Below, in pieces: positions 25,851 to 62,844 of a stretch of 64,000 nucleotides of DNA. The stretch comes from Candidatus Latescibacterota bacterium (GTDB lineage Bacteria > Latescibacterota > UBA2968 > UBA8231): positions 1,120,001 to 1,184,000 of the forward strand of contig CBDAOB010000004.1 in the NCBI GenBank assembly GCA_965197905.1. Reading direction: 5' to 3'. The notes under the pieces were generated by a model. That model worked only from the letters and a program-made list of their open reading frames with translations, was not told where the DNA came from and did no database searches. The number at the start of each line of letters is the position of its first letter. Positions within the stretch are counted from its first letter, which is position 1. The position numbers and the translations under genes are program-made.

Positions 25851-25901
25851 AATCGCCAGCTCACCGCAGACCTGGCGCTAACTGAGAGGTCTGGAAACCA
25901 G

Positions 25902-28202: not shown

Positions 28203-28206
28203 GCCA

Positions 28207-40758: not shown

Positions 40759-41229
40759 TCAGGAGCCAGGTTTGAAATAGGTCACTAGAAACCCGCCGAG
40801 GGCGGCCAGCGCAATGCCCAGCATGAACGGCCAGCGCACGACGGCAAGACCTCCCGCTGGTGGATGCAGGGCCGTCGCCACCACCGCGTTGACGATAGGA
40901 GCGCCGGCGAAGACGATGGACATCACCACCGTTGGAGTCCCCTTGGCGCCAAACGCCAGCAGCACACCCAACGCCCCGATGGCACCGACAAATCCGGCCA
41001 CCGTCGACCAGCCCGCACCGCGCGCCGGGAAATTCCAGGAAGCGCCATTGACGACGAGCACGATGAGCGACCCGATAACGGCGGTGATGAGGTAGGCCAC
41101 GCCGACAAACAGATACGCCTTGTACCTGCCGTTTATGGGATCGGCCATAGCACCCTGCCCAATGTGGAGAAAAACCCCGTAAAGACCCCAGGACAAAACC
41201 GTGATGAGAGCAAAGATCAACCAACTCAT
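40759..41229 (-). CDS. Small polytopic membrane protein (DMT/EamA-like)
   Basis: About five hydrophobic helices; W.IFAL...WG.YG and VMSIVFAGAPIVN; AAGGAG SD before ATG 41229. Confidence 0.65.
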   Translation of the reverse strand: MSWLIFALITVLSWGLYGVFLHIGQGAMADPINGRYKAYLFVGVAYLITAVIGSLIVLVVNGASWNFPARGAGWSTVAGFVGAIGALGVLLAFGAKGTPTVVMSIVFAGAPIVNAVVATALHPPAGGLAVVRWPFMLGIALAALGGFLVTYFKPGS

Positions 41230-41231
41230 GT

Positions 41232-43987: not shown

Positions 43988-44205
43988 GGTCGGTCCTCCC
44001 CCGCGTCGACCTCTTCCGGCCAGGCATGACCTACCAAAAGCCACATTATCAAGGCAGCTGCGACACAGAAACCGACATGGTAGAGCAGGCCGATGGGAAG
44101 CGCGAACAGGATCCGATCGTCATGCCAGAACCACAAATCGTTGTGAAGCAGATAGAGAAGGAACAGAAGCAGGTACAACAGCGGGCGAACCCGAATATTC
44201 GTCAC
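43984..44205 (-). CDS. Small 2-TM SSS-partner protein (DUF3311-like)
   Basis: LLHNDLWFW...LPIGLLYHVGF; directly upstream of the symporter; GTGA overlap with the halogenase stop. Confidence 0.75.
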   Translation of the reverse strand: MTNIRVRPLLYLLLFLLYLLHNDLWFWHDDRILFALPIGLLYHVGFCVAAALIMWLLVGHAWPEEVDAGEDRP

Positions 44206-45449
44206 GAGACCAATTCCGCACCGCACATCTCGCGCAGCGGTCCGAACACGATGGGCACCGATTCGCTGAAGACGTTGCCGCTGAGGATGTCGACGATGCC
44301 CTGCTTGCAATGAGGGTATCGCTGTAGAAAGCTGGAAAAGCTGAAATCCTTCGTGTAAAAGGCCTGTACCAGATTACGCACCGCCCCCATCGCGCTCTCG
44401 ACATTGTCGGCGAAGGCGCCCAGACGCGATGCGGACAGATCGTCCTGGTCGAACGCTTCGCCGATGGCGTCGGCCGCCCACTCTCCTGTTTTCAAAGCCA
44501 GGAATACTCCGGAGGAATAGATCGGATCCAGAAAACCATAGGCATCTCCCACCAGCAGCCAACCTTCTCCAGCCAATCGTCGGGCACGGTAGGAAAAGTC
44601 CTGGGTGACGCGGACCGGAAAGAGTTGCTCCGCTCCTTGCAGCCGATTCAACAGAGGGCGGCAACGAGACAGCTCGTCGTCAAAGATCTGCTGGGCGTTT
44701 TCGCTACGGTTTTGCAGCAGATAATCCAAGGAGCCGACGACACCGATGCTGGTGCAATCGTTCGCCAGCGGAATCGACCAGAACCATGAATCCTTGTTTT
44801 CGGTGAGCAGCACGAGAGTCGCACCTTCGTCGATGCCTGGATCGCGCGTGGCGCCGCGAACGTGGGTGAAAATCGAGGCTTTCTTGAGTTCGGGATCGAC
44901 CATCTTCAGAGCGAGTTTACGCGCCAGCAAAGCGCTTTGCCCGCTGGCGTCGGCGACGATGCGCGAGCGCAAGTTACACACACGGCCATCGGGCAATCTC
45001 ACCTCTGCACCTTCGGCTCGATCGCCGTCGAAGAGCACCCTCTGCACGGCAGCCCCGCGCACGACTTCAACGCCGATATCGGCGGCATTATCCAGGAGCA
45101 TCTGGTCAAACTCACTGCGCAACACCTGCCAGGTGACGGAACTCTCGTGGGGATCGTTCTCGGAAAAGTAGAACGGAGCCGATGCCTTGCCGCTGTGACT
45201 GTAGAACTGGACGCTGTGTTTTCGGGGAAAATGACTCGCTCCCAAACGCTCGAGCACACCAAGTCGCTGAAAGGTCCAGTAGGTAGCCGGCATCAGGGAT
45301 TCGCCGATCTTGAAGGTCGGTTCGGAAGCCCGCTCAAACAGCAGAACCCGGTACCCCGACTTCGCAACCAGAGCCGCCACTGTGCTTCCCGCCGGCCCGC
45401 CCCCGATGACAATTAGATCGGATAAAGTATCTGCCGTGAGGTTTGTCAT
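44202..45449 (-). CDS. Flavin-dependent halogenase-like FAD enzyme (PltA/CmlS/CndH type)
   Basis: GGGPAG, KIGESL, Lys in HFPRKHSV, RSEFDQML, WFWSIP (WxWxIP signature), GDAYGFLDPIYSSGV. Confidence 0.8.
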   Translation of the reverse strand: MTNLTADTLSDLIVIGGGPAGSTVAALVAKSGYRVLLFERASEPTFKIGESLMPATYWTFQRLGVLERLGASHFPRKHSVQFYSHSGKASAPFYFSENDPHESSVTWQVLRSEFDQMLLDNAADIGVEVVRGAAVQRVLFDGDRAEGAEVRLPDGRVCNLRSRIVADASGQSALLARKLALKMVDPELKKASIFTHVRGATRDPGIDEGATLVLLTENKDSWFWSIPLANDCTSIGVVGSLDYLLQNRSENAQQIFDDELSRCRPLLNRLQGAEQLFPVRVTQDFSYRARRLAGEGWLLVGDAYGFLDPIYSSGVFLALKTGEWAADAIGEAFDQDDLSASRLGAFADNVESAMGAVRNLVQAFYTKDFSFSSFLQRYPHCKQGIVDILSGNVFSESVPIVFGPLREMCGAELVS

Positions 45450-46747
45450 GAGTGCTCGGTGACGCGGTGGTCGGTCACCCGTCGCGATTTCAGCTCGAAA
45501 CGAGGCAGCGAACCCGGCGATACGGCGGTGACCTGCATGCGCAGGCCAAGCTTCAGCTGCAGGGCGTTGGAAATAGCTGACTCAATCTGACGCGGCGGCT
45601 CGCCGGCCGCCTCGATCTGGATTCGAACCTCGTCCATGCTGCCGCGACGATAAACGTCCACTGCAAACTCGGTTATTGCCTCAAATTCACGAACGACATT
45701 TTCGATCGCGCTGGGGAAGAAGACGAGTCCGCGAACGATGAGCGAATCGTCCAAACGTCCCATGACACCGCCCTCCGTACGACGCAGGCTACGGCCACAG
45801 CCGCATGCTCGGGATGATGCCAGCTTGATGCGGTCTCCAGTGCGGTAGCGCAACACGGGGCTCCCGGTGCGACCGAGATTGGTGATCACCAGTTCCCCAT
45901 CGTCGGTATCGTCGCCTGTGTCCGGGTCGATGACCTCGATCACAAACTCGTTTTCATTCAGGTGCAGTCCATCTTGGACATCGCACTCGTATCCCCAGGC
46001 CCCCACCTCGGTGGCGCCAGCATGATCGAAACAGCGGGCACCCCAGGCCTCTTCGATGCGACGTTTCGTAGCAGGAAGGCTGGCCCCCGGCTCTCCAGCG
46101 TGTATGGTGGTGCTCACGGCCGACGCTCGCAGGTCCAGCCCGTTTGCGACCGCCACCTCCGCCAGGTGCAGTGCGTAGGTCGGCGTGCAGACGAGTACAG
46201 TTGCGCCGTTGTCGATTATGGAATGCAACCGTTGTTCGGTAGACATGCCGCCGCCGGAGATGGCGAGACAGCCGATCGCCCGGGCACCCTCCAAAGCGCT
46301 CCAGAATCCGATGAATGGACCGAAAGAAAACGCGAAAAACACCCGATCCTCCGAGCCGACGCCAGCCGACCGGTAGACCGAGGACCAGCATTCCGCCCAC
46401 CAGGACCAGCTCTCCTCCGTGTCCAACCAGCGCAGTGGCTGACCCATGGTCCCTGAGGTTTGGTGAATCCGAATGTAGTCTTCGACGGAATACGTCAGGT
46501 TCGTACCGTAGGGTGGATGGCCCTGCTGGTCGACACTGAGCTCCTCGCGGGTGGTGAAAGGGAGACGGCGATAGGCAGCCAGGTCTACGAGGTCGTCGGC
46601 GCTGCGGATTCCGGCATTACTCAGCCTGGGGCCATAGAACTCGTTGCTTTCGAGAAGCGCAGCCGCCAGCATGCGCAAGCGCTGCAACTGTTGACGTTCC
46701 CGCTGGTCAACGGAGAGCGTATCACCCGGTGGAACTACAGCGCCCAT
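45446..46747 (-). CDS. Phenylacetate-CoA ligase (PaaK)-like adenylating enzyme
   Basis: LPFTTREEL, HQTSGTMG, CTPTYALHL, AGEPG, AGATE, RYRTGD, FPSAIENVV. Confidence 0.88.
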   Translation of the reverse strand: MGAVVPPGDTLSVDQRERQQLQRLRMLAAALLESNEFYGPRLSNAGIRSADDLVDLAAYRRLPFTTREELSVDQQGHPPYGTNLTYSVEDYIRIHQTSGTMGQPLRWLDTEESWSWWAECWSSVYRSAGVGSEDRVFFAFSFGPFIGFWSALEGARAIGCLAISGGGMSTEQRLHSIIDNGATVLVCTPTYALHLAEVAVANGLDLRASAVSTTIHAGEPGASLPATKRRIEEAWGARCFDHAGATEVGAWGYECDVQDGLHLNENEFVIEVIDPDTGDDTDDGELVITNLGRTGSPVLRYRTGDRIKLASSRACGCGRSLRRTEGGVMGRLDDSLIVRGLVFFPSAIENVVREFEAITEFAVDVYRRGSMDEVRIQIEAAGEPPRQIESAISNALQLKLGLRMQVTAVSPGSLPRFELKSRRVTDHRVTEHS

Positions 46748-48834
46748 TCCAACTCGAACCCCAGAGTCGCGGGAGGTGCCGGTATGACGGAAGTATTGCC
46801 GAAACCCCGCGTTTCGAAGTCGCGGTCGGTAAGATTCTTCAGATACATCCGGGCGCCTGCGTGGCGCAGGTTGAGGCGCAACGCCAGGTCGAATATCAAC
46901 CCGTCGCGCATCTCGAAATCGTTGTCGGCCGCAATGAATTGCGTTCCCGCGTATCGGGCGCCGAGACTCACCTCCGCATGACGCCCGAGGTTTCGCGTCG
47001 TCCACAGATTGAGCATGTGCTCCGGCGCGAACGGAGCGGTATTCCCCGACCGGTCGAAGGTTTGGAACTGAACTCCGGTTGCGGTGAGGACCTGGGCGGT
47101 TTCACGAAATTCGGTCAACTCGGCGGAGGTGTAGGCATAGGTCACGAAGCCGTGCCAACCGGGCGTTATCTGTGCCGACAGATCGAGCTCCAAACCTCGG
47201 GAACGTTGATCTCCGGTTTCCCGCAAAACCCCACGGTCGTCCGGTATCGCCAGGTTCGACTTTTTCAACTGATAGAGGGCGAACGTGCCGGTGATACGAC
47301 CATCGAAGGCGTTCAACTTCGAACCTACCTCCATCTGAGCGCTCTCCTCCGCCTTGCGCTTGCCCACCACCTGACTGGAAGGCGGCGCAAACCCGAGACC
47401 GACATTGGTATAGATGGACCAATCGTTGGACAGTCGGTAGACGGCGCCGATCATAGGACTTAGACGCCGGTAGTCCCGATCCGTGTCGGTGTCGTCGTCG
47501 CGGTAGTCAAGATAATCGAAGCGGCTGCCCAGAAAGAGCTCGTAACGCTCATCCACACTGACATTGTGGACCAGATAGGGAGCTATGGTGAGAGTGCGGG
47601 CATCAGCAGACGAGAATTGACCTGGAATTATCGCCCACGGCTTCGAGGCGGTTTCCAACGGATTGAACAGGTCGATGCTGGGAAGGGCTGCGACATCCAA
47701 CGCAAACTCGTCCGTCCATCGACCTACCTCGAAACCAGCCATGGTTTGGTGCTTCAAGCCGAATCCGGAAAAACTGATCGCCGTTTCCAGCTGGTTGCCC
47801 ACCAACCGCTGACGGTCGTCGAGAATCAAAAGCGTGCGGAACAGGTCTAGGGAACCGCTGGCATTGGGAAAGGCGCCATTAAAAAGAGTCCCTCTGGAAG
47901 GCCAGTCCAGATCAGTGTAATACAGCTTGTTGCGCAGCGTCAGATGATCGGTTATCCGATTGACGTATTCGACTCGGGCCCTGTAGGTGTCCTGGCTGGA
48001 GCCGTCGAACGGTGATTGGTAGGACCGCCGGCGGGGCACGTCGGCGATTTCGGAACCGACGATGGGGAGCCCGGAGTCACTGGCGTAATCACTGCGAAAG
48101 TACTCCAGATCGACGTATAGATTCGCGGTTTCGCTGAGACGCCATGAGAGCACCGGATTCACGCCGAAGGCGGAATTCTCCTTGTCCTGACGGTAATTGT
48201 CCGAATCCTGCCACAACAGATTGCCACGAATGGCGACACCGGCAGGTTGGCTTGCCCATCCCAGATCGAGCTTCCCGCGGAACGATGATGGAAAGCGACC
48301 CGCAGCGGCGTTGATGACGGCGAATCGGCCGAACAACGGCCGTTTGCGCACCAGATTGACCGCCCCCGACAGCGGATTACTGCCGTAGACAAACGCCCCC
48401 GGGCCTTTGAGGACCTCCACCCGTTCGAGGTTGTAGGTGTTGTAGAAGCTCACCTCCGGTTCCTGCACCCCATCGGTAAGCACGAGCCCGCTCGACAGTG
48501 AATCGAACCCGCGGATGACAAAGAAATCGTGGGTGCCGAACCCTGTTTGAACATTGACACCACTGATGTTTTTCAAGGCGTCGCCCAGGACCACGGCGTT
48601 CTGACGTCTAAGCTGGACATCCGTAACGACACCCACACTGAGAGGAGTGCGCTGCAATGGTAGAGGGATCTTGGTCGCTACAGAGCTTGTGGTGGGCAGC
48701 TCGAGACGGCTATCGGTGACGACGATCTCCTCCAAGGTATATGAGAGGGAGTCTGGTGGGTTCGCCCACCCGTCGGTTGCTGTCAAACCCTGGAAAGAGA
48801 TCGCACTTGCGAGGAAAATCAGGATCGGTGTCAA
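46735..48834 (-). CDS. TonB-dependent receptor (siderophore-receptor-like)
   Basis: Signal peptide, TonB box LEEIVVT, ATK..LP...TPLSVGVV, ERVEVLKGPGAFVYG plug, NLTDRDF near the C-terminus. Confidence 0.92.
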   Translation of the reverse strand: MTPILIFLASAISFQGLTATDGWANPPDSLSYTLEEIVVTDSRLELPTTSSVATKIPLPLQRTPLSVGVVTDVQLRRQNAVVLGDALKNISGVNVQTGFGTHDFFVIRGFDSLSSGLVLTDGVQEPEVSFYNTYNLERVEVLKGPGAFVYGSNPLSGAVNLVRKRPLFGRFAVINAAAGRFPSSFRGKLDLGWASQPAGVAIRGNLLWQDSDNYRQDKENSAFGVNPVLSWRLSETANLYVDLEYFRSDYASDSGLPIVGSEIADVPRRRSYQSPFDGSSQDTYRARVEYVNRITDHLTLRNKLYYTDLDWPSRGTLFNGAFPNASGSLDLFRTLLILDDRQRLVGNQLETAISFSGFGLKHQTMAGFEVGRWTDEFALDVAALPSIDLFNPLETASKPWAIIPGQFSSADARTLTIAPYLVHNVSVDERYELFLGSRFDYLDYRDDDTDTDRDYRRLSPMIGAVYRLSNDWSIYTNVGLGFAPPSSQVVGKRKAEESAQMEVGSKLNAFDGRITGTFALYQLKKSNLAIPDDRGVLRETGDQRSRGLELDLSAQITPGWHGFVTYAYTSAELTEFRETAQVLTATGVQFQTFDRSGNTAPFAPEHMLNLWTTRNLGRHAEVSLGARYAGTQFIAADNDFEMRDGLIFDLALRLNLRHAGARMYLKNLTDRDFETRGFGNTSVIPAPPATLGFELEWAL

Positions 48835-49168: not shown

Positions 49169-49289
49169 CGTTCCGGCCTTCGTTTTGGTGGCGTCGGGAG
49201 TAGATAAACCTACACATATAAAAAATAATCCGCCGAAGCAGGACAACTCCGGCATTAGTCCCTATTATTTCTGGGGGAGAGACAACGAA

Positions 49290-50735: not shown

Positions 50736-50746
50736 CCCCCAGTTGC

Positions 50747-51259: not shown

Positions 51260-51380
51260 TTTGTGCCTCCTTTCGCCACAGGGGCGTTGTGACGCTTGAC
51301 AAGCCGGAACGACCATGGATCGGTTCCGCGAGGTCGTTCGACACCGATACAAGTCAAGGAGCCCCGTTCCAGGTAGCAAC

Positions 51381-51408
51381 AAAAAACCGGCCCGAATAAG
51401 GGCCGGTT
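51381..51408 (-). terminator. Intrinsic terminator (minus strand)
   Basis: The minus strand reads AACCGGCCC-TTATTC-GGGCCGGTT-TTTT. Confidence 0.8.
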
Positions 51409-51682: not shown

Positions 51683-52951
51683 CTAAAGCGTCAGGTTGAG
51701 GCAAACGATTTCCTCCTCGTTGCGGAGGAACAAACGACCGGCTGCCAGGGCTGGCATCGTCCAGCAACGGCCCTCAAGTATCTGGGCGGTGCTCTTCTCA
51801 CGGTAGGATTCGGGTGTCGCTTCCACCAACCCTAGGTTTCCCTGCTCGCCCAGGACGATGAGATGCCCCGCCGCCAGCAGGAGTGTTCCTTTGCCGAAAC
51901 CGCGCTTCTTCCAGCGCTCGGATCCCGTACGGGCATCCAAACATTTGAGGATGGCGTTGTCGAAACCGTAGAGGTAATCACCCTGTACTACCGATGAGCC
52001 AAAGTGATTCTTCATCATCCGCGTTTTCCAGATCTCCCGCGCGGTAAGATTCGAGCCCGCCGCATCGACCTGGATCACACTCGCCCCGGTGTCGTAGCCG
52101 GATGAAATGAAGATCCTGTTGGGGGGAATGAAAACCGGGGTCGCGGCGTTTACGTCGTAGCTCGTCTCCCATGGAAAGCTCCATAACGTGGCACCATCTG
52201 AGGGATCGAGGGCAATCAGCCCAGGCGAGGTGAAAAAGATCACCTGTCGGCGACCGGCGAGGTCAATGGCTATGGGCGAGGAGTAACTCGGTTTTCCGGC
52301 AGCCGCGGTCCAGGCGATCTTGCCACTGTCTCGCCGAAATGCGGCGATGGTCGCGTCCTGCTCAACCTCGGAAAAGACATCCAGTACCGAGGTCTTGGGA
52401 CTGCCACCGGTTTCGACCAAAACCAGATCGCCTTCGACCAACGGCGACGAGCAAAACCCCCATCTCGGGGGCTCTCCACCGAACATCTTCATTAGATCGT
52501 GCTCCCACACCACCTTACCATCGTCGGCGCCGACGGCATACAGCTTCCCACGCGCTCCAAGCGCATAGACCTGTTTCCCGTCTATCGTTGGCGTGGCCCT
52601 GGGGCCATTGCCTCCTTGGTGGTCCAGGAAGATGTCATCCATTCTAAGGCGCCACACCTGGCGACCATCGGCGGCATCGAGACAGAGCAGGTACTCGGCA
52701 TGGTCGCGAGACACCATGGTGTAAAGGCGGTTACCTTCGACGGCGATGCCGGAAAACCCTCCACCACCGGCAACCCGCCACTCTACCTTGGGTCCGGCAG
52801 CGGGCCAAGTTTGTGGCAGCTCGGACACCACCGAAACACCGTCTCGATGGGGCCCTCGCCACTGTGGCCAGCCGGGCGCATCCGCGCCTGCGTCGGCGGT
52901 GCAGACGGCCGCCATGATACAAAGGGTCATGAATCTGCTGTGTGGTGTCAT
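51683..52951 (-). CDS. Exported PQQ-like (BamB-like) beta-propeller protein
   Basis: Signal peptide, WPQWRGP.RDG, GPRATP, SSPLVEGD, SYSSP, WTMPALA.GRLFLRN. Confidence 0.88.
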   Translation of the reverse strand: MTPHSRFMTLCIMAAVCTADAGADAPGWPQWRGPHRDGVSVVSELPQTWPAAGPKVEWRVAGGGGFSGIAVEGNRLYTMVSRDHAEYLLCLDAADGRQVWRLRMDDIFLDHQGGNGPRATPTIDGKQVYALGARGKLYAVGADDGKVVWEHDLMKMFGGEPPRWGFCSSPLVEGDLVLVETGGSPKTSVLDVFSEVEQDATIAAFRRDSGKIAWTAAAGKPSYSSPIAIDLAGRRQVIFFTSPGLIALDPSDGATLWSFPWETSYDVNAATPVFIPPNRIFISSGYDTGASVIQVDAAGSNLTAREIWKTRMMKNHFGSSVVQGDYLYGFDNAILKCLDARTGSERWKKRGFGKGTLLLAAGHLIVLGEQGNLGLVEATPESYREKSTAQILEGRCWTMPALAAGRLFLRNEEEIVCLNLTL

Positions 52952-53006: not shown

Positions 53007-54350
53007 TCAGGTGTAACGGGCGTTGCGATATTTGAGATCGTAGAACTCTGGAAGAAGCTGATCCACCTGGAGCAGCCCTTTTCGAGTTAGCTCGATCAGG
53101 TCGCGGTTGAAATCCAACAGCTGTTCCCGCTCGAGGTCCTGCAGCACCGGCAAGAAACGGGTGACGATATCGACGCCGAACTTTTCTTGAAAGTAGGATG
53201 GACTCAGCCGGCCCACCTTCAGTTGCAGGATGAATTCCCTTGTCAATCGTTCGGCGGCGTCGGTGACGAAACCCCGTGCCAAGGGCAGACGACCCTCCTG
53301 CAGCGCCTTCAGGTAGGGGTCCCACTCGGCCAGATTCTGAAAGTGGACGCCGCCCACGTGAGAAAAGGAAGCCACCCCGGTTCCGAGCATGTCGCTGCTT
53401 TGCCATACCGCGTCCCGGTAGACGAATTCGCCGTTCCCTCCGGCCCTGGTCATGGTGTAGGCACTGGATGCTTCGAATCCGGCTTCTTCAAACTGTTCCA
53501 TGGCGTACGCGTGCCAGGCGCGCTTGGTTTCCCAGTTCGCGAAATCGAGGTCGGACCCCTGGGCGAGCTCTTTGGAGTAGACGGTGTTGTGCGGGAGCTC
53601 CATCTGGTAGATGGTTACGCTGTCCGGCTCGAGAGCAATGGTCCGGCTCACCGTCTCCTTCCAGCTGTCCCACGATTCGCCTACCATGCCCGCGATGAGG
53701 TCGACGTTTAGCTGTTCGAACTCGAGCTCCCGAATCCAGGGCATGACCTGGTAGATCTCAGGCGAACGATGGGCGCGGCCGTTGTTGGCGAGAATCTCGT
53801 CGTTCAGATTCTCAATGCCCAGACTGAGGCGTGTAACCCCGATTTCTTTGATCGCTTCCAATTTTGCCTGGGTGAGCGTCCCTGGCTCGCATTCGAAAGC
53901 CACCTCCCGAGCACCCTCCCAGGAGATGCACTGTTGCGCGCGGGTAACAAACTGCCGCAGGTGGCGAGCACTGATGTAGGATGGCGTGCCGCCCCCAAAG
54001 TAGATGAAGGTGAGATCCCGGCCCTGCACGGCGGGAAGCTCGGCGTAGATCTCCAGCTCCAGTATCAACCCGTCGAGGTATTGTTGGATGTCGGAGCTGT
54101 TTTTGTCGGTGTACACGCGGAAATAACAGAACCTGCACCGCTTGCGACAGAATGGGATGTGGATATAGAGCCCCACGGGGGTTTCCGAATCGGCAGGCGA
54201 GCTGTTGAGGACGTCGTAGGCATGGCCAACCTCTTCCTCCTTCCAGAACGAGTATGGCGGATAGTTGGAGACGAATACGCTCCCTATCTCGGTCTGGGCC
54301 CGCGCTTTGCGCGTCGTTGCGGGATCTGGATTGGTGGTTGGGCTATTCAA
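53007..54350 (-). CDS. HemN-like radical SAM enzyme
   Basis: LYIHIPFCRKRCRFCYF (CxxxCxxC), YFGGGTPS, RLSLGIE, NVDLIAG, LGTGVASFS. Confidence 0.9.
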   Translation of the reverse strand: MNSPTTNPDPATTRKARAQTEIGSVFVSNYPPYSFWKEEEVGHAYDVLNSSPADSETPVGLYIHIPFCRKRCRFCYFRVYTDKNSSDIQQYLDGLILELEIYAELPAVQGRDLTFIYFGGGTPSYISARHLRQFVTRAQQCISWEGAREVAFECEPGTLTQAKLEAIKEIGVTRLSLGIENLNDEILANNGRAHRSPEIYQVMPWIRELEFEQLNVDLIAGMVGESWDSWKETVSRTIALEPDSVTIYQMELPHNTVYSKELAQGSDLDFANWETKRAWHAYAMEQFEEAGFEASSAYTMTRAGGNGEFVYRDAVWQSSDMLGTGVASFSHVGGVHFQNLAEWDPYLKALQEGRLPLARGFVTDAAERLTREFILQLKVGRLSPSYFQEKFGVDIVTRFLPVLQDLEREQLLDFNRDLIELTRKGLLQVDQLLPEFYDLKYRNARYT

Positions 54351-55455
54351 CGGGTTGCTCTCCGAAGCAGTACAGGTATCCGTTTTCGGCGCCGATTACA
54401 AGCCGGTCCCCTGCCATGGATGGGGAGGCGATGATGGCCGAACCAGCAGCAAAACGCCAACGCTCCTCTCCGGAAGATAGGTCGAGACCGAAAAGGGTGC
54501 CGCCAGTCGTTCCGAAATAGACCCGCCCGGAAGCAACCACCGGCGAAGAGTCGACCTTCGAACCCGCGGCGAAGCTCCACAGCAGTTCTCCTGTTTTCGG
54601 GTGCAGCGCACGTACGAATTTGTCACGTCCGGCAACGACGATGTGCTCGCGTAGCACCGCGGCCGAAGCGTAGAACGGAAACCGGTGGTCAATTTCCCGA
54701 TATCTCCAGGCTACTTCACCTGATTCCAGATCGAGAGCAACAAACTCGTCACCAAAAGTCCCTAGGTAGGCGAACCTCCTCTGTACCGCGGGACTCGCCG
54801 CAGTGTAGGAACCCAAGGTGATCTGGTCCAGCTCGCGGCCCGTCTGGGTGTCTAGTACGCGCAATAAGCCGTCGCAGCCGGCGACCAGCACGCTACCGTC
54901 GACGACGGGACAGGAGGCGTGAACGTACCCCTCGGTCTCGAACCTCCAGATCTCCTCTCCGGTATCTCGGTTTATGCAGTAGAGCCGTTGGTCGTAAGAC
55001 CCGAAGAACAGTCGCTCGCCGCTGGCGACGGCAGAGGAAACGATAGCGTCCTCCGCGGCAAAGGTCCACCGCGGCGCTCCGTTGGCAAGGTTCAGACTAT
55101 GAAACCTGCCAGCCTCGTCGCCGAAGAAGATCCCTCCATCATATACCAGCGGCGAGGATTTGATGGCTGCACGGGCCGCGTATTCCCATTTGAGCTCTCC
55201 CGAATACAGGTCGACGGCGTAGAGTGTGCTGTCCATCGATCCCACGTAGGCGACTCGGCCCAGAATGGCCGCCGTGGATTCGATTGGAGCTCGGGTCGGG
55301 AAGGTCCAGAGAAGCTGCGGCGTTGTCGGCAGGTTGGCGGCGCTGACGCCCGACATCTGCGGGTCACCGCGAAAGCTGGGCCAGCTATCGCGCGCGAGGC
55401 AAGGCGACACCAAGACCAGTTGCCAGACGCAGAAGCTGAGAAACCACGCACCCAT
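54343..55455 (-). CDS. Exported PQQ-like beta-propeller protein (regular repeats)
   Basis: Signal peptide, WPSFRGD, about eight blades of SSP.V....Y.G..DG..YA.D..TG...W.F; TGATG coupling with the upstream stop. Confidence 0.88.
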   Translation of the reverse strand: MGAWFLSFCVWQLVLVSPCLARDSWPSFRGDPQMSGVSAANLPTTPQLLWTFPTRAPIESTAAILGRVAYVGSMDSTLYAVDLYSGELKWEYAARAAIKSSPLVYDGGIFFGDEAGRFHSLNLANGAPRWTFAAEDAIVSSAVASGERLFFGSYDQRLYCINRDTGEEIWRFETEGYVHASCPVVDGSVLVAGCDGLLRVLDTQTGRELDQITLGSYTAASPAVQRRFAYLGTFGDEFVALDLESGEVAWRYREIDHRFPFYASAAVLREHIVVAGRDKFVRALHPKTGELLWSFAAGSKVDSSPVVASGRVYFGTTGGTLFGLDLSSGEERWRFAAGSAIIASPSMAGDRLVIGAENGYLYCFGEQPVE

Positions 55456-56570
55456 CAGAATGCGGCCCGGTATAGCTCGAGAAGGTCGGACAGCGCCAAC
55501 GGCCGCGGATTGAAACGGGCGGTCCATTGCTCGGCGGCATCGGCGGCGAGGTCGGGGAGGACTTCCTCCGGCACCGGAATTTCCCGCAACTGCTGGGGCA
55601 ATCCCGCCGTGGAACGAACAACCGCCAGACGCTCGATCATCTCGTCGGCGCCACCTCCCAACACTGCGTATTCCCGAAACATCTCCGCGTCGTTGTGGCG
55701 TATGACGTGAGTCAACATCAAGCCGACCGCCGCGCCGTGAGATATATTGAAGCGGGCCGACAGCGGATTGGCGCAGGCGTGGGCCGCACCAAGCATGGAG
55801 TGTTCGATGGCAACGCCTGCAAAATGGGCCCCCGTCAACATCGCCTCCCACGGTTTGCTATCCTCGGTTCCGGCAAGCACCGTCTCGTAGTTCCTCTCGA
55901 GCAGGCGCCATGCCTCCGCTGCGAACATCTGCGACACAGGGTTGCGCCGCGTGCAAACATAGCTCTCCGCGGCGTGCGCCATGGCATCCAATCCGGTAGC
56001 AGCCACGACTTCGCGAGGGGCGCTGGGCGCCAGATGGGGGTCGAGAATGACCGCGACAAATTTCACCTTGCTATCGCCGCACGCCATCTTGCGATGTGAC
56101 TCGTCCTGGGCGATTACCGCGAACGATTGGGCTTCGCTGCCGGTGCCGGCGGTTGTTGGAATCCCGATCGCCGGCAACATCGGCTTGGTCGCACGGTTTA
56201 CACCCCAGTAATCCTCCATGCTACCGCCGTTGGTATAGATGAAGTTGATCCCCTTGGCGCAGTCCATGGCGCTGCCGCCACCTAGGCCGACGATGAGGTC
56301 GATGCTCCCACATTGATGTGCGAAATCGGCCCCGACCCGGACGTTGCTCGCCGTGGGGTTCTCGTCCACCTGATCGAAGATGTGGCATTCGTCGACTGAC
56401 CCCATGAGCAGGTCAAACGCCTTGGTAGTTAAGCCGCAGCGGGTGATCCCTGGGTCGGAGACCAGCAGAATCTGCCGAGCTCCAAACTTTTCCGGCATAG
56501 CGCCGAGGTCGTCCAGTCGCCCGGCGCCGACCAGCACCTCGGGACTGCACTGGAACTCAAACGAGGGCAT
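55455..56570 (-). CDS. Iron-containing alcohol dehydrogenase
   Basis: GLGGGSAMDCAK, IPTTAGTGSE, DAMAHAAESY, H-x13-HG metal ligands. Confidence 0.93.
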   Translation of the reverse strand: MPSFEFQCSPEVLVGAGRLDDLGAMPEKFGARQILLVSDPGITRCGLTTKAFDLLMGSVDECHIFDQVDENPTASNVRVGADFAHQCGSIDLIVGLGGGSAMDCAKGINFIYTNGGSMEDYWGVNRATKPMLPAIGIPTTAGTGSEAQSFAVIAQDESHRKMACGDSKVKFVAVILDPHLAPSAPREVVAATGLDAMAHAAESYVCTRRNPVSQMFAAEAWRLLERNYETVLAGTEDSKPWEAMLTGAHFAGVAIEHSMLGAAHACANPLSARFNISHGAAVGLMLTHVIRHNDAEMFREYAVLGGGADEMIERLAVVRSTAGLPQQLREIPVPEEVLPDLAADAAEQWTARFNPRPLALSDLLELYRAAF

Positions 56571-58008
56571 CTTGCAGCGGCCCGGAGCTCCTGATCTGCA
56601 GCGCTCGTTGCTGATACAGCAATTCGAAGAGATTGCCCTCGTGGGGCTGATCCCACTCAATCCGATTGGTCCTAATCGGCCCGATATTGAGACGGTCGAT
56701 GGCAGGCGTCGTGAGCAATTCGGCGACGAAATCTCGTTGATCCGACAGAGCCGTCACCACCAGGCTTGGTCCGATCATGTTCAACAACTCTGCCTGTGGT
56801 GCCTGAACCACGCTGACGAACGGGAAGAGGAATTCGGTGTTGGCCAGCGGGTGTGAGCCGTCTTCGCACCATACAACCGTTGGCAGCAAGAAGCTGCAGC
56901 CATCCACGATGGTGAGACGCGGACCTTTGCGATACCGTGCGGTCAGGTCTTCCGCACCCGGAATTGTCAGCTGCGACTCGATCAACTGGTCGATGCCTCG
57001 CGCGACGTCCGGGTTGCTGAAGGCGGCGATCCGGGCGCGATCGTCGGTGAGACTGCGGGCTTCGATCTTCGCCAGCCGGCGCGCCAGTTCCTCGGCGAGC
57101 TCGCGTCCTTGCGACGTGGTCCACACACCGGAGGCATTGATGCAGGAGCGACCGCCGTTGTCGACCACCGAATGTTCGATGAGATCCAGGTATTCGGACC
57201 ACTGCGGTGCCGTGTCGGCGGCAAAGAGAATCTTGCTACGTCCGGGACCATGAATTTGAACCCCGGGTTCGGTGCACCACGGATCGACGGTGGCTCCACC
57301 TCCGAACAAGAGGGAGCGTCCACATTGCAGCAGAATCTCCGCCGCTCCGCTGTGATCCGTTGGATAGAAGCTGAACGCCGGTGCTGGACAGCCGGCAGCC
57401 ATAAACGCCTGGGCTACCCGAAACGGCGTCCAGGGCTCCTCCGCGCCCGGTTTTAGAACCACCGGGACCTTGAGCGCAATGGAAGGCAACCACAGGGAGT
57501 GAACCCCGGGGGAATTGCTCGGCAGGACGCAACCGAGAGCCTGGGTCTGGCACAGATAGCTGAGGTTGCGACCGTCCGGATTTGTGCCGGCCGTGCCGTC
57601 GAGCACGGTCATATCCAACCCGCGGGTCAAACCGTCCAGGACCTTCTCCATCGACGTCAGGACTGTGGAGATCTTCTCCATGTTGGAGCGACAAAGGACT
57701 CGAGGTAGACCGGTGCTTGCCGAGGTCTGGGCAACATAGTCGTTCGGCGTTTGCACCGAGTTCCCCAGCGGCAACTCCCCTTCCATGAACAGCTTCGCGG
57801 CCCGGTAGCAGAGCTCCATCAACGCGGCCGTACCCATCTCGGCTAGCTGCTGTTTGTGATGGGCAGCAGCCGCAAGATCGAGCGCGATCAATCCTCGATT
57901 GGCCACGCTGACCTCGGCCAGCGGCTCTCCCGATCGAATATCCCGCACGATGCTTTTCTTCAGGCTTGCGTACGGCGTGCCGGCGCGCAGGATCGGTAGG
58001 TGCAGCAT
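56557..58008 (-). CDS. Divergent aldehyde dehydrogenase-fold enzyme (EhpG/LuxC-like acyl reductase candidate)
   Basis: LPSNSPG, VVLKP, LFGGG, HGPGRSK in place of ELGGK, NGGRSCINAS (catalytic Cys), TEFLFPFVSV; TGATG coupling with the upstream gene. Confidence 0.8.
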   Translation of the reverse strand: MLHLPILRAGTPYASLKKSIVRDIRSGEPLAEVSVANRGLIALDLAAAAHHKQQLAEMGTAALMELCYRAAKLFMEGELPLGNSVQTPNDYVAQTSASTGLPRVLCRSNMEKISTVLTSMEKVLDGLTRGLDMTVLDGTAGTNPDGRNLSYLCQTQALGCVLPSNSPGVHSLWLPSIALKVPVVLKPGAEEPWTPFRVAQAFMAAGCPAPAFSFYPTDHSGAAEILLQCGRSLLFGGGATVDPWCTEPGVQIHGPGRSKILFAADTAPQWSEYLDLIEHSVVDNGGRSCINASGVWTTSQGRELAEELARRLAKIEARSLTDDRARIAAFSNPDVARGIDQLIESQLTIPGAEDLTARYRKGPRLTIVDGCSFLLPTVVWCEDGSHPLANTEFLFPFVSVVQAPQAELLNMIGPSLVVTALSDQRDFVAELLTTPAIDRLNIGPIRTNRIEWDQPHEGNLFELLYQQRALQIRSSGPLQDALV

Positions 58009-59126
58009 CAGTAGACTCCCACCACCACCGACTGCTGCAGCTCGGAAAGCAACCGCAGGTTGCAGACCCCGTCCCACGGATACTGGACGGTCGGTTCCGC
58101 GCGTTCGGCCTCGTCCCGCTCCAGAAAACGGGGCATGAAGAACTCCTTCGTCAAGGTGGTCAGCATGACCCGACCTGTTCCCCCGTACGGTACCACCTCA
58201 TTCGGTGACTTGGGATCCACCAGCTCGATTACCGCCCGAGGCTGCGGCGGGTAGTAGGTGATCGCGTAGTCGTCTTCCGGATCGAACGGCTTGAAACAGG
58301 CCAATCCCATCAGGGTGTTGCCGTAGGTCGGGACGAAATCGATCCCAGGTACCAGCTCCTCGCGGGCAAATCGATGGAACTGGGCATCCATCTCGGTGCC
58401 GCCGCAGAAAATCCCAGTGATCCCCGCTTTGGCCAGGGAGATCTTCGAGGCCAGTGCTTCCAGCAGTTTTGGGGTGGTGAACAGACAGCGGACGTTATCG
58501 TGAGCCCGCAGTACCGTAAGTGCCTGGTGTACAACGTGATCCTTGTACTCTTCCAGGTCGCGGTGTTTGCCTTGGGACACCATTCGGTTTACCCAGCGGG
58601 GATCCAGGTCGACCATGAAACAGATGCCACCGCGCAGCTGCGCCAGGTGTTCCACTGCCAGACGCAGGCGGCGCGGGCCGCTGGGACCGAGCATCAACCA
58701 GTCGCCGCCAGGAGGGAACCCCTCCGCCGATAGTGACTCGCTGAATTGCTCGTAATCGATCTGGAAATCCCGGACATTGATGCGGTACTTGGGCGTGCCC
58801 GTGGACCCACCGGTTTCGAACACGTACACCGGGTCGTCTTTGTACGCCTTGGGGACCCAACGCCGCACCGGCCCGCCGCGCAGCCACTCATCCTGGAAAT
58901 GGCCCAGCTTGCTCAGGTCGCCGTAAGCCCCGATTTCGGTGAGCGGATCGAAGCCGAGCTCTTCCTTCCGCTGCAGCCAGAAGTCGCAACCGGTCTCGGC
59001 ACTGAAATGCCAGCGTACGATCTCGCGGACATGAGCGTTGAGTTGCTCGCCGGCGGCGTTGACGGCACTGTCCGTGGGTCTTTCAGAATCTACCATGTTC
59101 AAGAGAGTATTGGGGTGTTCGCTCAA
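58008..59126 (-). CDS. EhpF-like truncated ANL adenylating enzyme
   Basis: Motif order matches my recollection of Pantoea EhpF: RWHFS.ETG..FW...E.L.FDP, ETGGSTGTPKY, DLDPRWV, TTP.LL, GGTE, YG.T..G, PRFLERD, C-terminal GVY. Start is 59126 or ATG 59096. Confidence 0.8.
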   Translation of the reverse strand: MSEHPNTLLNMVDSERPTDSAVNAAGEQLNAHVREIVRWHFSAETGCDFWLQRKEELGFDPLTEIGAYGDLSKLGHFQDEWLRGGPVRRWVPKAYKDDPVYVFETGGSTGTPKYRINVRDFQIDYEQFSESLSAEGFPPGGDWLMLGPSGPRRLRLAVEHLAQLRGGICFMVDLDPRWVNRMVSQGKHRDLEEYKDHVVHQALTVLRAHDNVRCLFTTPKLLEALASKISLAKAGITGIFCGGTEMDAQFHRFAREELVPGIDFVPTYGNTLMGLACFKPFDPEDDYAITYYPPQPRAVIELVDPKSPNEVVPYGGTGRVMLTTLTKEFFMPRFLERDEAERAEPTVQYPWDGVCNLRLLSELQQSVVVGVY

Positions 59127-59142: not shown

Positions 59143-60576
59143 TCACTCGCCGGCTATCGCGAACAAGGTGTTGCGGCTGGCAATGTACAAGACCCCGTTT
59201 TTGGCGACGGGTGTGGTGTAGATGGAGCTTCCCATGTTGACTTCGTAAAGCAGCTCCTTCTTCTTGCCGGCGCGGAATACAGCCACGTCCCCGTCTTCGT
59301 CTCCGACGTAGAGCTTGCCGTCGGCCACCAGCACCGAACCCCATATAGCCGCAAAGGTGTCGTAGGTCCAGTACTTCTCGCCGGTGGCGGCGTCTATGCA
59401 GTAGACGAATCCGGTGAGATCGGCGGTGTAGAGCAGTCCATCGCTGACGGCCACGGTCGACATAGTGCGATTGTATTCGTGGCCACCCAGATGCCAAACC
59501 GGCCCGCTCGAAGTAATATCTCCGCTGCCTCGTGCATCGATCGCCCACAGATGTCCGATCCCTTCGCCATGTTCGGGATCCTGTCCAACCCCGACATAAA
59601 CGATGTTGTCGTGAATCACCGGTGTGGAAATGATATTGTTCCGCGTCCCTCGTCCTCCCAACTCCCACCGGCTATCCTTCGGATTGCAGTCGAATTTCCA
59701 GATCAGCTTGCCGGTTTCCGGCTCAAAAGAGTAGATCCATCCGTCCCCGCCGGGAAAGACGACCTGTCCCTTGCCGTCGATCTCCGCGTAGGCCGGATTG
59801 GACCACTGGCCATGGAGAATGCCTTCCCCGGGGTCGGCGTTCTCCCACACCAGTTCGCCAGTATGTTTGTTGACCGCGATGAAGCTGGGCGCAAACGGGG
59901 AGGGAACATGCACGTGTCCCTCATCCACGCCGTTGCTGGTGACGACGAAGATCAGATCGCCGGCGCCGATGGGCGAACAGGTGGCGAGGTTGTGGGGAAA
60001 TACATCCAGCTCGGCGATCATGTCCAGCTTCCAGATCAGATCGGCATCACTGGCCGTAGTGTCCGTCTCATTCTGAATCGCACCATCGTTTTCACCGTCG
60101 AGGAATCCCTCTGTGTCCGCGCTGACGATTTCACATCGGTTGGAGATGTAATAGAGCCGGTCCCCCTCGATATACGGGGTTGAGCAGATTCCCTGCTGGG
60201 GCCAGTCGTTGACCCTGCCAGCGGGTAGTTTGGTGTGACTCGCCTGCCACAGAAAGGCACCGTCGGTTTCGTTGAAGGCGATCAGCACGCCGCGATCTCC
60301 CGTGTCCTTCGGAATACGCAGGGCTCCGTTGTTGGTGCCGACGAAAACCTTGCCGCCGATGATCAGCGGCCCGGCATACGTCTGGGAACCGAGCTCCGCC
60401 TTCCATTTGATGTTCTTACCTGTTTTGGTATCCCACGTTGCCGGCAGGTCCTTCGCCTCTACGACCATGTTTCGACCCGGGGTAAAACCCCACATGGCGG
60501 TTTCGGCGGGCTCGGCTTGCAGCATGCCGGTCATAAAGGTCACGGCGATCAGAGCAGCAAAACGCATCATCTTCAT
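59143..60576 (-). CDS. Exported PQQ-like beta-propeller protein with acidic Ca-loop-like insert
   Basis: Signal peptide, W...GKNIKWKAELGSQTY, DTEGFLDGENDG, HGQWSNP, GQDPEHGEG; ATGA coupling. Confidence 0.85.
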   Translation of the reverse strand: MKMMRFAALIAVTFMTGMLQAEPAETAMWGFTPGRNMVVEAKDLPATWDTKTGKNIKWKAELGSQTYAGPLIIGGKVFVGTNNGALRIPKDTGDRGVLIAFNETDGAFLWQASHTKLPAGRVNDWPQQGICSTPYIEGDRLYYISNRCEIVSADTEGFLDGENDGAIQNETDTTASDADLIWKLDMIAELDVFPHNLATCSPIGAGDLIFVVTSNGVDEGHVHVPSPFAPSFIAVNKHTGELVWENADPGEGILHGQWSNPAYAEIDGKGQVVFPGGDGWIYSFEPETGKLIWKFDCNPKDSRWELGGRGTRNNIISTPVIHDNIVYVGVGQDPEHGEGIGHLWAIDARGSGDITSSGPVWHLGGHEYNRTMSTVAVSDGLLYTADLTGFVYCIDAATGEKYWTYDTFAAIWGSVLVADGKLYVGDEDGDVAVFRAGKKKELLYEVNMGSSIYTTPVAKNGVLYIASRNTLFAIAGE

Positions 60577-62774
60577 TGAGATTCGTTCTCCCACACCCTC
60601 AGGTTGTCGTACTGAATGTCTGCCGCGGAATAGCCATAGATCCCCGGACTTCCCGATCGATTCGGCAACGGGTCCTCCGCGGTCATCGTCCAGGATGCCG
60701 GCTCGGGATCGCCCCTGGGCCAGACCTTTCCCTTCACCAGAGCACGGCTGTCTTCCACGTCGACGCGCATCTTGACGGTGTACCAGACGTTGGGGTCCCA
60801 ACTGAAGTCGATCGTTTTCGCCATGCGCAGATCTGAAGCCCACGAGCGAATCTGGAGACGCTGATGGTTGCCCATCATATCCAGCGTGTAACGCTGATTG
60901 ATGAGCCCCATATCGGGTCGTCGTCGTTTGTTCTTGGTACCCAAAAGGTCAGCCTGGATCGTGTATCCACTCATGGTGGAGGCGCCCAGGTAGACGTTGG
61001 AGCGATGTAACCCCCGTGGCGATGGAGGTTTTACCAGGACGCGGTTGCCATCTTGAGTCGCAACCTTGAACTTGCTGCTGGCAGCCACCCAATAGGGCGG
61101 ATTCTTCCCCACTTCCACGGTCTCGAAATCCTCGGTCCAGGGTAAGTCCGGAAACGCGCGAACGCGGGCGCTCGCCTCCAGACCTTCGTAGGTCGCCTTT
61201 ACCGCACCCGCCTGGCCTCCCGCTTTGCCGTCGAGTTTGAGTCGGCCTTTGTCGTTCTGTGATCCAGCTATGTTTTCGAGACTCCATGCTGCTGGCACGC
61301 TACCCAGAGGATTGCCGGTGGCATCGAAGGCGCGGGCCTCGAAGGTCACCTTCTGTCCCGGGCGGGTTAGCAGCTCCGTGGGCGTCGCCTGCAGATGGGT
61401 AGCGGCCCCGACCACGGGTGGCGGTTGCGCCGCTCCCATTTTCTTCGTGGAAGCAGTCGACTTGCCATCGCCGAGGCAGTAAAGTCCTTCCTCGGTGCTG
61501 AAATAGATCCGTCCGCGGTCAACGGCCGGCGAGCCGTAGATCTCGGCCGGTCGGTCTTCTTCGCCTACCAAAACCCTATCCGCGTCTAGTTTGGTCGCCG
61601 CTGCAGTGCTGACGTCGACGATATGGAATCCCCCATTGACCTCCGTCGCAAAGATCTTTCCGTCGGCCCACACCGGCGAGCCCTTACCTACGGTGCCGAG
61701 GCTGTACTGCCATCGCGAGGCCCCCGTTGCCGCATCGAGACAATGCAGGTTGGCCGAGTTGTCCACCACGAATAGATCACCCCCGTGTACCACTGGCGAA
61801 GTGTAACCGACGGCGCAGCCGTCGTAGCGCCAGACCTCATGTGTAGCGGTGACGTCCCCGGTTCCCGTGCCGTCGATGCAGACGACTCGGCCCATCTCCG
61901 TACTGTCCAGATTCTCCTCGCTGTGAGCAGCATAGACCAGATTGCCCTCCACCACCACCGACGAATTGATACCCCGCTGGCTGAGCTTGAACCCCCAAAC
62001 CTTTTCGCCGGTAAGCGCTTTCATGGCATAGATGCCGCCGTCGGCGTTTCCGGCAATGAGCAACTCCTGACCATTGATATTGGCTAACACCGGCACCGAG
62101 TAGGTAGTGTCGAGAGGTCGACCGCCCGGTGTAGAGATCCACACAACGTCGCCTGTCCTCTTGTCAAAGGCGAAATAACGATGACGCGGGACGGTGTGCG
62201 CACCCCAGCTGACATTGAGGAAGCTTATGATTACGAGATTGTCCACCACCACCGGAGTATGGACGCGGCCGCCGTATCCGGAGATGCGACCGTACTCCTC
62301 GGTCAGCGAGCGCGACCATACGATGCCACCGTCGCGGTCGAAGCAGAAGAACAGCCCCTGTACCCCGTGGGCGTAGATGTAGCCGGTTTCCGGATCGCCC
62401 GCCGGGCTCGCCCAACCGACCCTGTTAAAGGGAATCGTGGTGTGAAACAGGTTGAAACGGTGTTCCCAGATCAGTTCACCAGTCTCGGCATCGAAACCGG
62501 CGACGCGTTCCTGTTCGGTGATGTCTCGTCCGACCCGTCCCATGACATAAACCCGCCCATCCAAAACAACAGGGGTGGAACGCCCCGTAAAATCGGCCCG
62601 CCAGAGCAGATTCTTGCCTTCCGGGGACCACTCTGAGATGAGCCCGGTATCCTGGCCGACGCCATTTTGGGACGGTCCACGCCAGCTGGGCCAATCTCCG
62701 CCAGCCGAAGTGACCAGGAAAACGCAGAGAAAGGGGACGGTTCTTAGTACCCTTCCGTACGATGACTGAATCAT
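60573..62774 (-). CDS. Large exported PQQ-like beta-propeller protein with extra C-terminal beta-sandwich domains
   Basis: Signal peptide, DWPSWRGP, propeller blades, then an Ig-like segment and a ConA/DUF1080-like end (YTIQAD...WYTVKMRV...GKVWPRG..EP..W...GSPGIYG...YDNL). Confidence 0.85.
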   Translation of the reverse strand: MIQSSYGRVLRTVPFLCVFLVTSAGGDWPSWRGPSQNGVGQDTGLISEWSPEGKNLLWRADFTGRSTPVVLDGRVYVMGRVGRDITEQERVAGFDAETGELIWEHRFNLFHTTIPFNRVGWASPAGDPETGYIYAHGVQGLFFCFDRDGGIVWSRSLTEEYGRISGYGGRVHTPVVVDNLVIISFLNVSWGAHTVPRHRYFAFDKRTGDVVWISTPGGRPLDTTYSVPVLANINGQELLIAGNADGGIYAMKALTGEKVWGFKLSQRGINSSVVVEGNLVYAAHSEENLDSTEMGRVVCIDGTGTGDVTATHEVWRYDGCAVGYTSPVVHGGDLFVVDNSANLHCLDAATGASRWQYSLGTVGKGSPVWADGKIFATEVNGGFHIVDVSTAAATKLDADRVLVGEEDRPAEIYGSPAVDRGRIYFSTEEGLYCLGDGKSTASTKKMGAAQPPPVVGAATHLQATPTELLTRPGQKVTFEARAFDATGNPLGSVPAAWSLENIAGSQNDKGRLKLDGKAGGQAGAVKATYEGLEASARVRAFPDLPWTEDFETVEVGKNPPYWVAASSKFKVATQDGNRVLVKPPSPRGLHRSNVYLGASTMSGYTIQADLLGTKNKRRRPDMGLINQRYTLDMMGNHQRLQIRSWASDLRMAKTIDFSWDPNVWYTVKMRVDVEDSRALVKGKVWPRGDPEPASWTMTAEDPLPNRSGSPGIYGYSAADIQYDNLRVWENESQ

Positions 62775-62815
62775 TCGCCACAGTCCTTGCAAACTCGCCA
62801 AGTGTGTATGGTTAG

Positions 62816-62844
62816 AGTGTACAGGATGATACACCTCGCATCAA
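62816..62844 (-). promoter_or_regulatory. Putative sigma70-type promoter for the propeller/EhpF operon
   Basis: The minus strand reads TTGATG, 17-bp spacer, TACACT, about 40 nt upstream of ATG 62774. Confidence 0.55.

Follow-up and report, generated by a model that had tools for sequence, protein, structure and literature searches.

An EhpF/EhpG-type ligase and reductase pair from a Latescibacterota bacterium belongs to a widespread gene cluster that co-occurs with a family of PQQ-like propellers

The question raised by the locus discussed here is what a pair of enzymes resembling EhpF and EhpG from the D-alanylgriseoluteic acid cluster of Pantoea agglomerans does in a Candidatus Latescibacterota bacterium. 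To our knowledge, pairs of this type have so far been described from a small number of antibiotic pathways and nowhere else. The window, i.e. the whole analysed stretch of 64,000 nucleotides (assembly GCA_965197905.1, contig CBDAOB010000004.1, positions 1,120,001 to 1,184,000), encodes the pair on the minus strand, as the first two members of a trio of co-directional genes (59096-58008, 58008-56557 and 56570-55455). The third member is an iron-type alcohol dehydrogenase (Fe-ADH). The trio occupies the middle of a cluster of about 18 genes, which extends from 62834 to 36222 and also encodes four beta-propeller proteins (A to D). The pair is of a known type (EhpF/EhpG, GriC/GriD); the system around it is undescribed and widespread. 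Its phyletic profile links it to a large, unexplained family of propellers and, in planctomycetes, also to squalene-hopene cyclase (SHC)-like proteins. A search of the full-text literature, with subscription papers and supplements outside its scope, returned no description of the cluster.

Comparison with orthologues agrees with starts at ATG 59096 for the ligase (362 amino acids, the same as its closest homologue), ATG 58008 for the reductase (483 amino acids) and ATG 56570 for the Fe-ADH (371 amino acids). An earlier note on this DNA had started the ligase at a TTG at 59126, which is ten codons too many. It had correctly described three overlapping genes: the ligase stop and the reductase start share one nucleotide (TGATG at 58008), the reductase and Fe-ADH genes overlap by 14 nucleotides, and the Fe-ADH gene overlaps the gene for propeller C by one. 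The trio was thus recognized in that note, whereas the surrounding genes and the association with the propellers were absent from it.

The ligase (58008..59096) is a truncated adenylating enzyme of the EhpF/GriC type. The earlier note had suggested a comparison with EhpF and EhpG, and had seen the EhpF motif order down to the terminal GVY. In a search of the PDB, the ligase indeed matched EhpF (3HGU/3L2K) over its full length (residues 17-372, through the GVY) with an E-value of 3.6e-46, the next-best match having an E-value of 0.58. The ETGGSTGxPK P-loop is retained, and G360 and Y362 are invariant (60/60). Canonical ANL enzymes have a C-terminal subdomain. The ligase ends in register with EhpF at 362 amino acids and, unlike its PaaK-like neighbour, has no C-terminal AMP-binding Pfam match. 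Identity to Pantoea EhpF is only about 31%. In a tree of 38 rows, the ligase, 12 cluster orthologues and two Arg-Arg library representatives form a 100/100 group, while Pantoea EhpF sits on a separate branch. All 36 clade members carry R142, R143 and R145 (GP-R-R-L-R), where EhpF has GP-H-I-V-G. Aryl-CoA ligases have a His-Val-Val-Gly pocket motif, and by analogy with this motif the replacement of the EhpF His-Ile by Arg-Arg suggests a substrate unlike that of EhpF, perhaps a doubly anionic one.

The reductase (56557..58008) has an aldehyde dehydrogenase (ALDH) fold, according to a Pfam Aldedh match (E 1.6e-7) and a structural model (pLDDT 93) with a TM-score of about 0.75 to ALDHs. It is 24% identical (E 5e-36) to EhpG, the product of the gene that follows ehpF on a P. 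agglomerans plasmid. All 65 sequences in the alignment have Cys289. The Glu that acts as general base in hydrolytic ALDHs (LELGG) is replaced by His253 in all 62 cluster orthologues, and by Gln, Arg and Tyr in three sequences from outside the cluster. A catalytic Cys without the Glu had been seen in the earlier note; the site proves to hold an invariant His rather than to be merely lost. The Fe-ADH (55455..56570; Pfam Fe-ADH match) belongs to group III by its Asp and three His metal ligands and its GGGS NAD motif (31/31). D195, H199, H264 and H278 are conserved in 31 of 31 sequences, and so is N268, which aligns with the second His of HAIAH/HAMAH and makes the enzyme a HAxAN variant. The second His of HxxxH is the proposed base in Fe-ADHs. 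Both features had been read correctly in the earlier note. The alignments behind these residue counts contain close kin and a few duplicated genomes.

A protein search returned at least 8000 clusters of ligase homologues, distant relatives included. Some of the latter are fused to other enzymes, the ligase domain lying behind a zinc-type alcohol dehydrogenase in P0220 and behind a class III aminotransferase in P0197. These are aldehyde-consuming types of enzymes, and the fusions therefore fit with aldehyde-yielding ligases. A separate distant clade (L125-L129; 32-35% identity, GPHIIG) occurs in planctomycetes and one acidobacterium, near genes for class III aminotransferases and male-sterility-type reductase-like proteins, in genomes that lack the propeller family. 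On a plasmid of Streptomyces sp. NBC_00342 (L104:7989-17071), a GriC-like 'arylcarboxylate reductase' gene lies immediately 5' of a type I polyketide synthase gene, with no ALDH partner nearby, so that some members of the family may load a polyketide synthase instead. Plasmid 2 of Halalkalicoccus jeotgali (L105:6550-11374) carries genes for a sodium symporter, an EhpF-like ligase, an EhpG-like reductase and a divergent short-chain dehydrogenase/reductase (SDR), with no biosynthetic cluster around them. In most of nine loci, chiefly from Poribacteria (L012:5031-5726 and eight similar ones), a 231-residue Vgb-lyase-like propeller is encoded between ligase and reductase. An apparent ligase-reductase fusion in G019, an open frame of 833 amino acids, was rejected as a stop-to-stop artefact.

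The conservation of the cluster was assessed in the best 80 of at least 588 GTDB loci, many of them ended by contig ends. Within 10 kb of the ligase gene, these loci contain genes for the reductase (56), the GT4 glycosyltransferase (28), the Fe-ADH (26), the radical S-adenosylmethionine (radical SAM) enzyme (21) and the permease (17). The names of their source records include Poribacteria, Latescibacterota, Gemmatimonadota, Acidobacteriota, Planctomycetota and Verrucomicrobiia. The gene order recurs with some losses in G017, G030, G032 and G040, and is rearranged in planctomycetes. Separation of the genes does not mean their loss. The reductase was present in nine of ten genomes selected because it does not adjoin the ligase. 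Among Acidobacteriota, 30 of 32 genomes with the ligase clade have an Fe-ADH orthologue and 28 have the radical SAM enzyme, compared to none of 16 without the clade. The trio is hence a unit even where its genes are split across the genome. The ligase is nearly always single-copy and is 52-80% identical across phyla. In view of this conservation and of the number of homologue clusters, the clade probably has a role in the core physiology of bacteria that are abundant in soil, sponges and the ocean.

The cluster predicts the presence of a propeller family. Three genome sets (283 genomes) were searched with the ligase and propeller D. The family was found in all 81 genomes with the ligase clade, and in 13 of the 202 others, the remaining 189 having none. 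Both were present in 27 of 41 relatives, 33 of 131 Acidobacteriota (a set that takes in the unpublished genomes G093 and G068) and 21 of 111 Planctomycetota. Propellers alone occurred in 1, 2 and 10 genomes of these sets, respectively, neither in 13, 96 and 80, and the ligase alone in none. In twelve genomes the sole ligase was a distant one (32-38% identity); these were scored as negative for the clade, and none of them has the propellers. Three centre genomes had been chosen as positives, thresholds differ between the sets, and PQQ-like (pyrroloquinoline quinone-like) propellers below threshold were left uncounted. Propeller-positive genomes have 2-17 copies (lower bounds in two phylum sets); the genome studied here has eight WxxxRG-type propellers outside the cluster. 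G001, from the genus of the window (89% complete), is without the ligase, reductase, GT4, permease and any propeller copy.

The 13 genomes with propellers but without the ligase clade are informative. Twelve of them retain the permease, which is absent from seven of seven propeller-negative genomes, and nine retain the GT4. Orthologues of the other trio members were not found (reductase 0/8, Fe-ADH 0/11 genomes tested), nor was the radical SAM enzyme (0/11). The presence of the propellers is thus coupled more closely to that of the permease and GT4 than to that of the trio. The ligase-less version of the cluster (L111:7050-20000 and L112:18-12570 in G234; also L113/L114, L121 and L124) combines propellers, an NHL protein, GT4, radical SAM and ABC/FtsX genes with those for ferredoxins, a NapH-like membrane iron-sulfur protein and a NuoEF/NuoG-like pair. 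Several such loci add a terpene module of a DUF116-polyprenyl synthase fusion, a DxDD SHC-like cyclase and a prenyltransferase-beta-like gene. The fusion occurs in 9 of the 13 exceptions, 17 of 21 ligase-bearing planctomycetes, one of eight Acidobacteriota clade genomes, none of four relatives and none of ten propeller-negative planctomycetes. A strict replacement of the trio by this module was considered and rejected, since the fusion is also common in ligase-bearing planctomycetes; moreover, the GT4s of ligase-less loci are not one group. Because of the same distribution, the module is an add-on tied to the cluster system. Neither the SHC-like cyclase nor the fusion was found in the genome studied here. 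The cyclases, proteins of 610-631 amino acids in Planctomycetota and Acidobacteriota, encoded beside GT4/ABC/FtsX genes, resemble, by protein length, taxa and Pfam matches, an SHC-like clade that PMC12324236 and PMC7306690 present as having no known function in these phyla. The gene context of this clade is the subject of supplementary figure S10 of PMC7306690, which may anticipate part of the link to the cluster.

The propellers have hydrophobic, signal-like N-termini, and the ligase has none. Fold and Atlas searches returned only the labels BamB/PQQ-like and, for the glycosyltransferase, generic GT4. The quinoprotein models TIGR03075 and TIGR04528 score the propellers far under cut-off. PqqC is above cut-off in just 2 of 66 clade genomes and in none of 14 others, and it is therefore unlikely that the propellers use home-made PQQ; TIGR02111 gave no match in the genome studied here, but its control was silent as well, and PF03070, taken as a proxy for PqqC, gave none either, which by itself proves nothing. 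One locus of dispersed WxxxRG propellers (L151; G000:C4:1256000-1275999) alternates three of them with three aldo/keto reductases, and also holds two PD40 propellers, a DUF3179 protein and an AhpC/DsbD-like protein.

The homologies, conserved residues, gene order and co-occurrence suggest a route in which all reactions, with their direction and order, are predicted, as are the substrate and the part played by the propellers. The ligase would adenylate a carboxylic acid with ATP. Its partner would take the acyl group onto Cys289 and, in the manner of GriC/GriD, use NAD(P)H to reduce it to an aldehyde, which the Fe-ADH would convert to a primary alcohol. We prefer this reading because genomes retain all three genes even where these lie apart, because of the GriC/GriD and EhpF-O precedents, and because of the aldehyde-type fusions of distant ligases. 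According to PMC10179220, 3-amino-4-hydroxybenzoate (3,4-AHBA) is adenylated and then reduced to its aldehyde by GriC/GriD. EhpF-O turn phenazine-1,6-dicarboxylate into a hydroxymethyl product (PMC3175449), and a 6-formyl intermediate has been described in Xenorhabdus (PMC11477647). We consider the acid-to-aldehyde step by ligase and reductase quite likely, and the formation of an alcohol by the trio still rather likely. We thus keep the acid-to-alcohol route of the earlier note as the most likely one, and regard its (hetero)aromatic substrate as hypothetical.

The acid is probably not a phenazine, and in view of the Arg-rich pocket it may bear a second negative charge. It is probably imported via the TonB receptor and sodium symporter of the cluster, and probably tailored as a CoA thioester by the PaaK-like ligase, halogenase-like flavoenzyme, radical SAM enzyme and thioesterase. 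The alcohol would be the hydroxyl acceptor for the GT4, and the MacB/FtsX-type ATP-binding cassette (ABC) transporter would carry the product to the periplasm, where it might be a ligand or cofactor of the WxxxRG propellers. For the whole route, from acid via alcohol to a glycosylated, exported product that serves the propellers, the chances appear about even. More tentatively, the product that the cluster makes and exports could be a glycosylated cofactor of a kind not yet described, which many planctomycetes would prenylate and for which the trio would build the alcohol head. The WxxxRG propellers, here meaning the 'BamB/PQQ-like' ones of Planctomycetota, Acidobacteriota, Poribacteria and Latescibacterota, would then be periplasmic enzymes or electron carriers, ligase-less genomes would salvage the cofactor, and the SHC-like cyclases would belong to the same pathway. 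This extended version is possible, although we do not regard it as probable.

Several observations weigh against the proposed route. The existence of 13 genomes with propellers but without the ligase clade means that the trio is not strictly required. Since the cluster itself encodes propellers, a clade genome will trivially have one copy or more, and the co-occurrence counts include kin that are not independent, many incomplete genomes, and copy numbers that are lower bounds. A conserved catalytic motif was sought in 66 representative propellers and not found; they share mainly structural residues, with no clear catalytic or cofactor motif, and their closest fold is the non-enzymatic BamB. 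The loss of the general-base Glu is shared with CoA-acylating oxidative ALDHs, such as methylmalonate semialdehyde dehydrogenase (MMSDH), which is among the reductase matches, and for this reason the direction of the trio reaction is not fixed by the sequence. Finally, the loss of the second His may alter the activity of the Fe-ADH.

Other explanations have to be considered as well. The earlier note had described the module as being without phenazine core genes, and had raised the possibility that scavenged phenazines are modified. The searches agree with such an absence. A tblastn search of the genome (91% complete) recovered homologues of EhpF and EhpG, once each, but none of Pantoea PhzA/B, PhzF, PhzG or EhpR; PhzD and PhzE queries gave only unlinked matches of about 27%, read as housekeeping paralogues. 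PF02567 had no match, its control being positive in 10 of 14 genomes; PF03284 gave no match in the genome studied here either, yet its control was silent too. No phz core gene or EhpR homologue was seen in any of 113 related loci. That the trio acts on scavenged phenazine-1,6-dicarboxylate, as EhpF/EhpG do on self-made phenazine, would agree with EhpF being the sole close solved structure for the ligase, with importers in the cluster, and with an Arg-rich pocket that could hold a second carboxylate. Given the missing core genes, the distance of the ligase clade from Pantoea EhpF and the different pocket motif in all its members, we regard this as very improbable. In another division of labour, the acid adenylated by the ligase would be passed on to an amine or an alcohol, as with the adenylation-plus-propeller protein ACSF4, and the substrate of the ALDH-fold reductase would be a CoA thioester formed by the PaaK-like ligase. 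Propeller C scores above the ACSF4 propeller cut-off, the cluster has this second ligase and a thioesterase, and ligase and reductase are apart in some genomes. However, the two are translationally coupled here, the closest plasmid relatives of the reductase adjoin EhpF-type ligases, and the propellers have signal-like N-termini that the ligase lacks, which makes the division of labour improbable.

The same chemistry might instead yield a structural envelope glycolipid or lipid anchor, with the propellers as BamB-like carriers or scaffolds and not cofactor-dependent enzymes. MacB/FtsX-type ABC transporters pull amphiphiles out of membranes, and one is present in the cluster; ligase-less clusters contain the terpene module, and the propellers are nearest to BamB and lack a catalytic motif. 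The terpene fusion is rare or absent in the Acidobacteriota clade genomes, the relatives and this genome, though, acyl carrier protein and fatty-acid synthase genes are missing among the recurrent neighbours, and the redox genes (NuoEF/NuoG-like, ferredoxin, NapH-like) between the propellers of ligase-less loci fit with electron transfer. We therefore consider a glycolipid rather unlikely. A catabolic system, in which a substrate is imported, the trio either removes a toxic aldehyde or oxidizes an alcohol, by way of its aldehyde, into an activated acid, and the propellers are binding proteins or hydrolases, is favoured by the two importers, by dispersed propellers near aldo/keto reductase and Gfo/Idh/MocA genes, and by chemistry, since the reactions of Fe-ADHs and Cys-acylating ALDHs are reversible. 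Against this, the GT4, radical SAM enzyme, halogenase-like enzyme and exporter-type ABC transporter indicate synthesis, the ligase is a conserved, nearly always single-copy gene, and the GriC/GriD precedent is reductive. Catabolism is thus quite improbable.

The remaining genes of the cluster are all on the minus strand. Propeller A (60573..62834), a PQQ-like beta-propeller with C-terminal extra domains, is conserved upstream of the ligase and probably exported (PQQ_2 match, hydrophobic N-terminus). Propeller B (59143..60576; PQQ_2), also probably exported, is the most conserved, with about 57-76% identity in most cluster loci and 39-42% in several planctomycete loci. Downstream of the trio, propeller C (54343..55455) scores 208.8 bits with PF13570, against a cut-off of 133, and is also kept in ligase-less loci. 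It is followed by a HemN-like radical SAM enzyme with intact CxxxCxxC (53007..54350), identified by family scans and conservation, and by propeller D (51683..52951), of the WPQWRGP type, which belongs to the family with eight more copies elsewhere in the genome and whose model is closest to BamB (TM 0.65-0.69). Next come the TonB-dependent receptor (46735..48834; Pfam), in a position shared with G017, G030, G032 and G040, a PaaK/FlxY-like CoA ligase in a conserved position (45446..46738, start approximate; NCBIfam PaaK 214-244 bits, below cut-off), and a flavin-dependent halogenase-like enzyme (44202..45449; Trp_halogenase, with CmlS/QhpG below cut-off), which has the conserved Lys and WxWxIP motifs in 10 orthologues. 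A conserved pair of a DUF3311 small membrane protein and a sodium:solute symporter (42518..44190; Pfam) precedes the GT4 (41232..42521; family scan), with its N-terminal CxxC motif, and a small membrane protein (40759..41235), EamA-like by eye and without a Pfam match, that recurs in 18 loci. A 4HBT-type thioesterase (40269..40691; PF13279), which recurs in 11 loci, and an ABC ATPase with a double FtsX/MacB-type permease of 1131 amino acids (36222..40399; family scan) complete the cluster. No scanned cluster gene reached the cut-off of any NCBIfam model, and a promoter scan gave results at chance level.

The cluster is interrupted at 48831-51382 by an opposite-strand glyceraldehyde-3-phosphate dehydrogenase gene and a family-less open reading frame (ORF) of 211 amino acids; an aldo/keto reductase-like remnant of 128 amino acids precedes the TonB gene. 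The insert is also present in G002, and G030 has a matching stretch. After the cluster lies an ORF that by eye resembles glutamine-dependent NAD synthetase (32638-34629) and had no counterpart in the 80 GTDB loci. A plus-strand region (17573-30830) with genes named by eye, for a long coiled-coil protein, a tetratricopeptide repeat protein, a MoxR AAA protein and a DUF58-like protein, followed by a suf operon, is unrelated to the trio.

Compared to known systems, the trio is closest to EhpF/EhpG (3HGU, 3HGV, 3L2K), where a truncated adenylating enzyme ending in GVY is likewise followed by a Cys-bearing, Glu-less ALDH-fold protein. Apart from the sequence distance and the clade-specific Arg-Arg, the systems differ in the residue at the Glu site (His here, Gln in EhpG), in the lack of phenazine core genes, in the use of an Fe-ADH instead of an SDR, and in the propeller/GT4/ABC surroundings. 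LuxE/LuxC also combine activation by ATP with an ALDH-fold acyl reductase. The parallel drawn in the earlier note is useful as an analogy only, as there was no LuxE or LuxC match in Pfam/NCBIfam scans, among 60 listed profile matches or among listed fold matches, and luciferase genes are absent here. With GriC/GriD of the grixazone cluster of Streptomyces griseus, compared by their description in PMC10179220, the trio would share the two-protein route from acid via acyl-AMP to aldehyde. Their substrate is 3-amino-4-hydroxybenzoate, and the route ends at the aldehyde, inside an antibiotic cluster. Streptomyces plasmid matches at 32-35% identity are annotated as 'arylcarboxylate reductase'. The assignment of our pair to the EhpF/GriC type is based on full-length homology, a short ANL enzyme without C-terminal subdomain, and a coupled Cys-bearing ALDH partner (in 56 of the 80 loci).

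Further work could lead to a cofactor or lipid biomarker not known before and, for use in biocatalysis, to an acid reductase that needs no carrier. A wider comparison is with the PQQ and mycofactocin systems. They differ from the cluster in that here PqqC is confined to 2 of 66 clade genomes, the propellers lack a conserved quinoprotein active-site motif, and the recurrent neighbours (ORFs of at least 70 amino acids) include no apparent precursor peptide. The mycofactocin cluster has a glycosyltransferase and a radical SAM enzyme. Both types of genes are present here as well, together with PQQ-like propellers, and as in the PQQ and mycofactocin systems, one conserved cluster predicts a scattered, multi-copy protein family.

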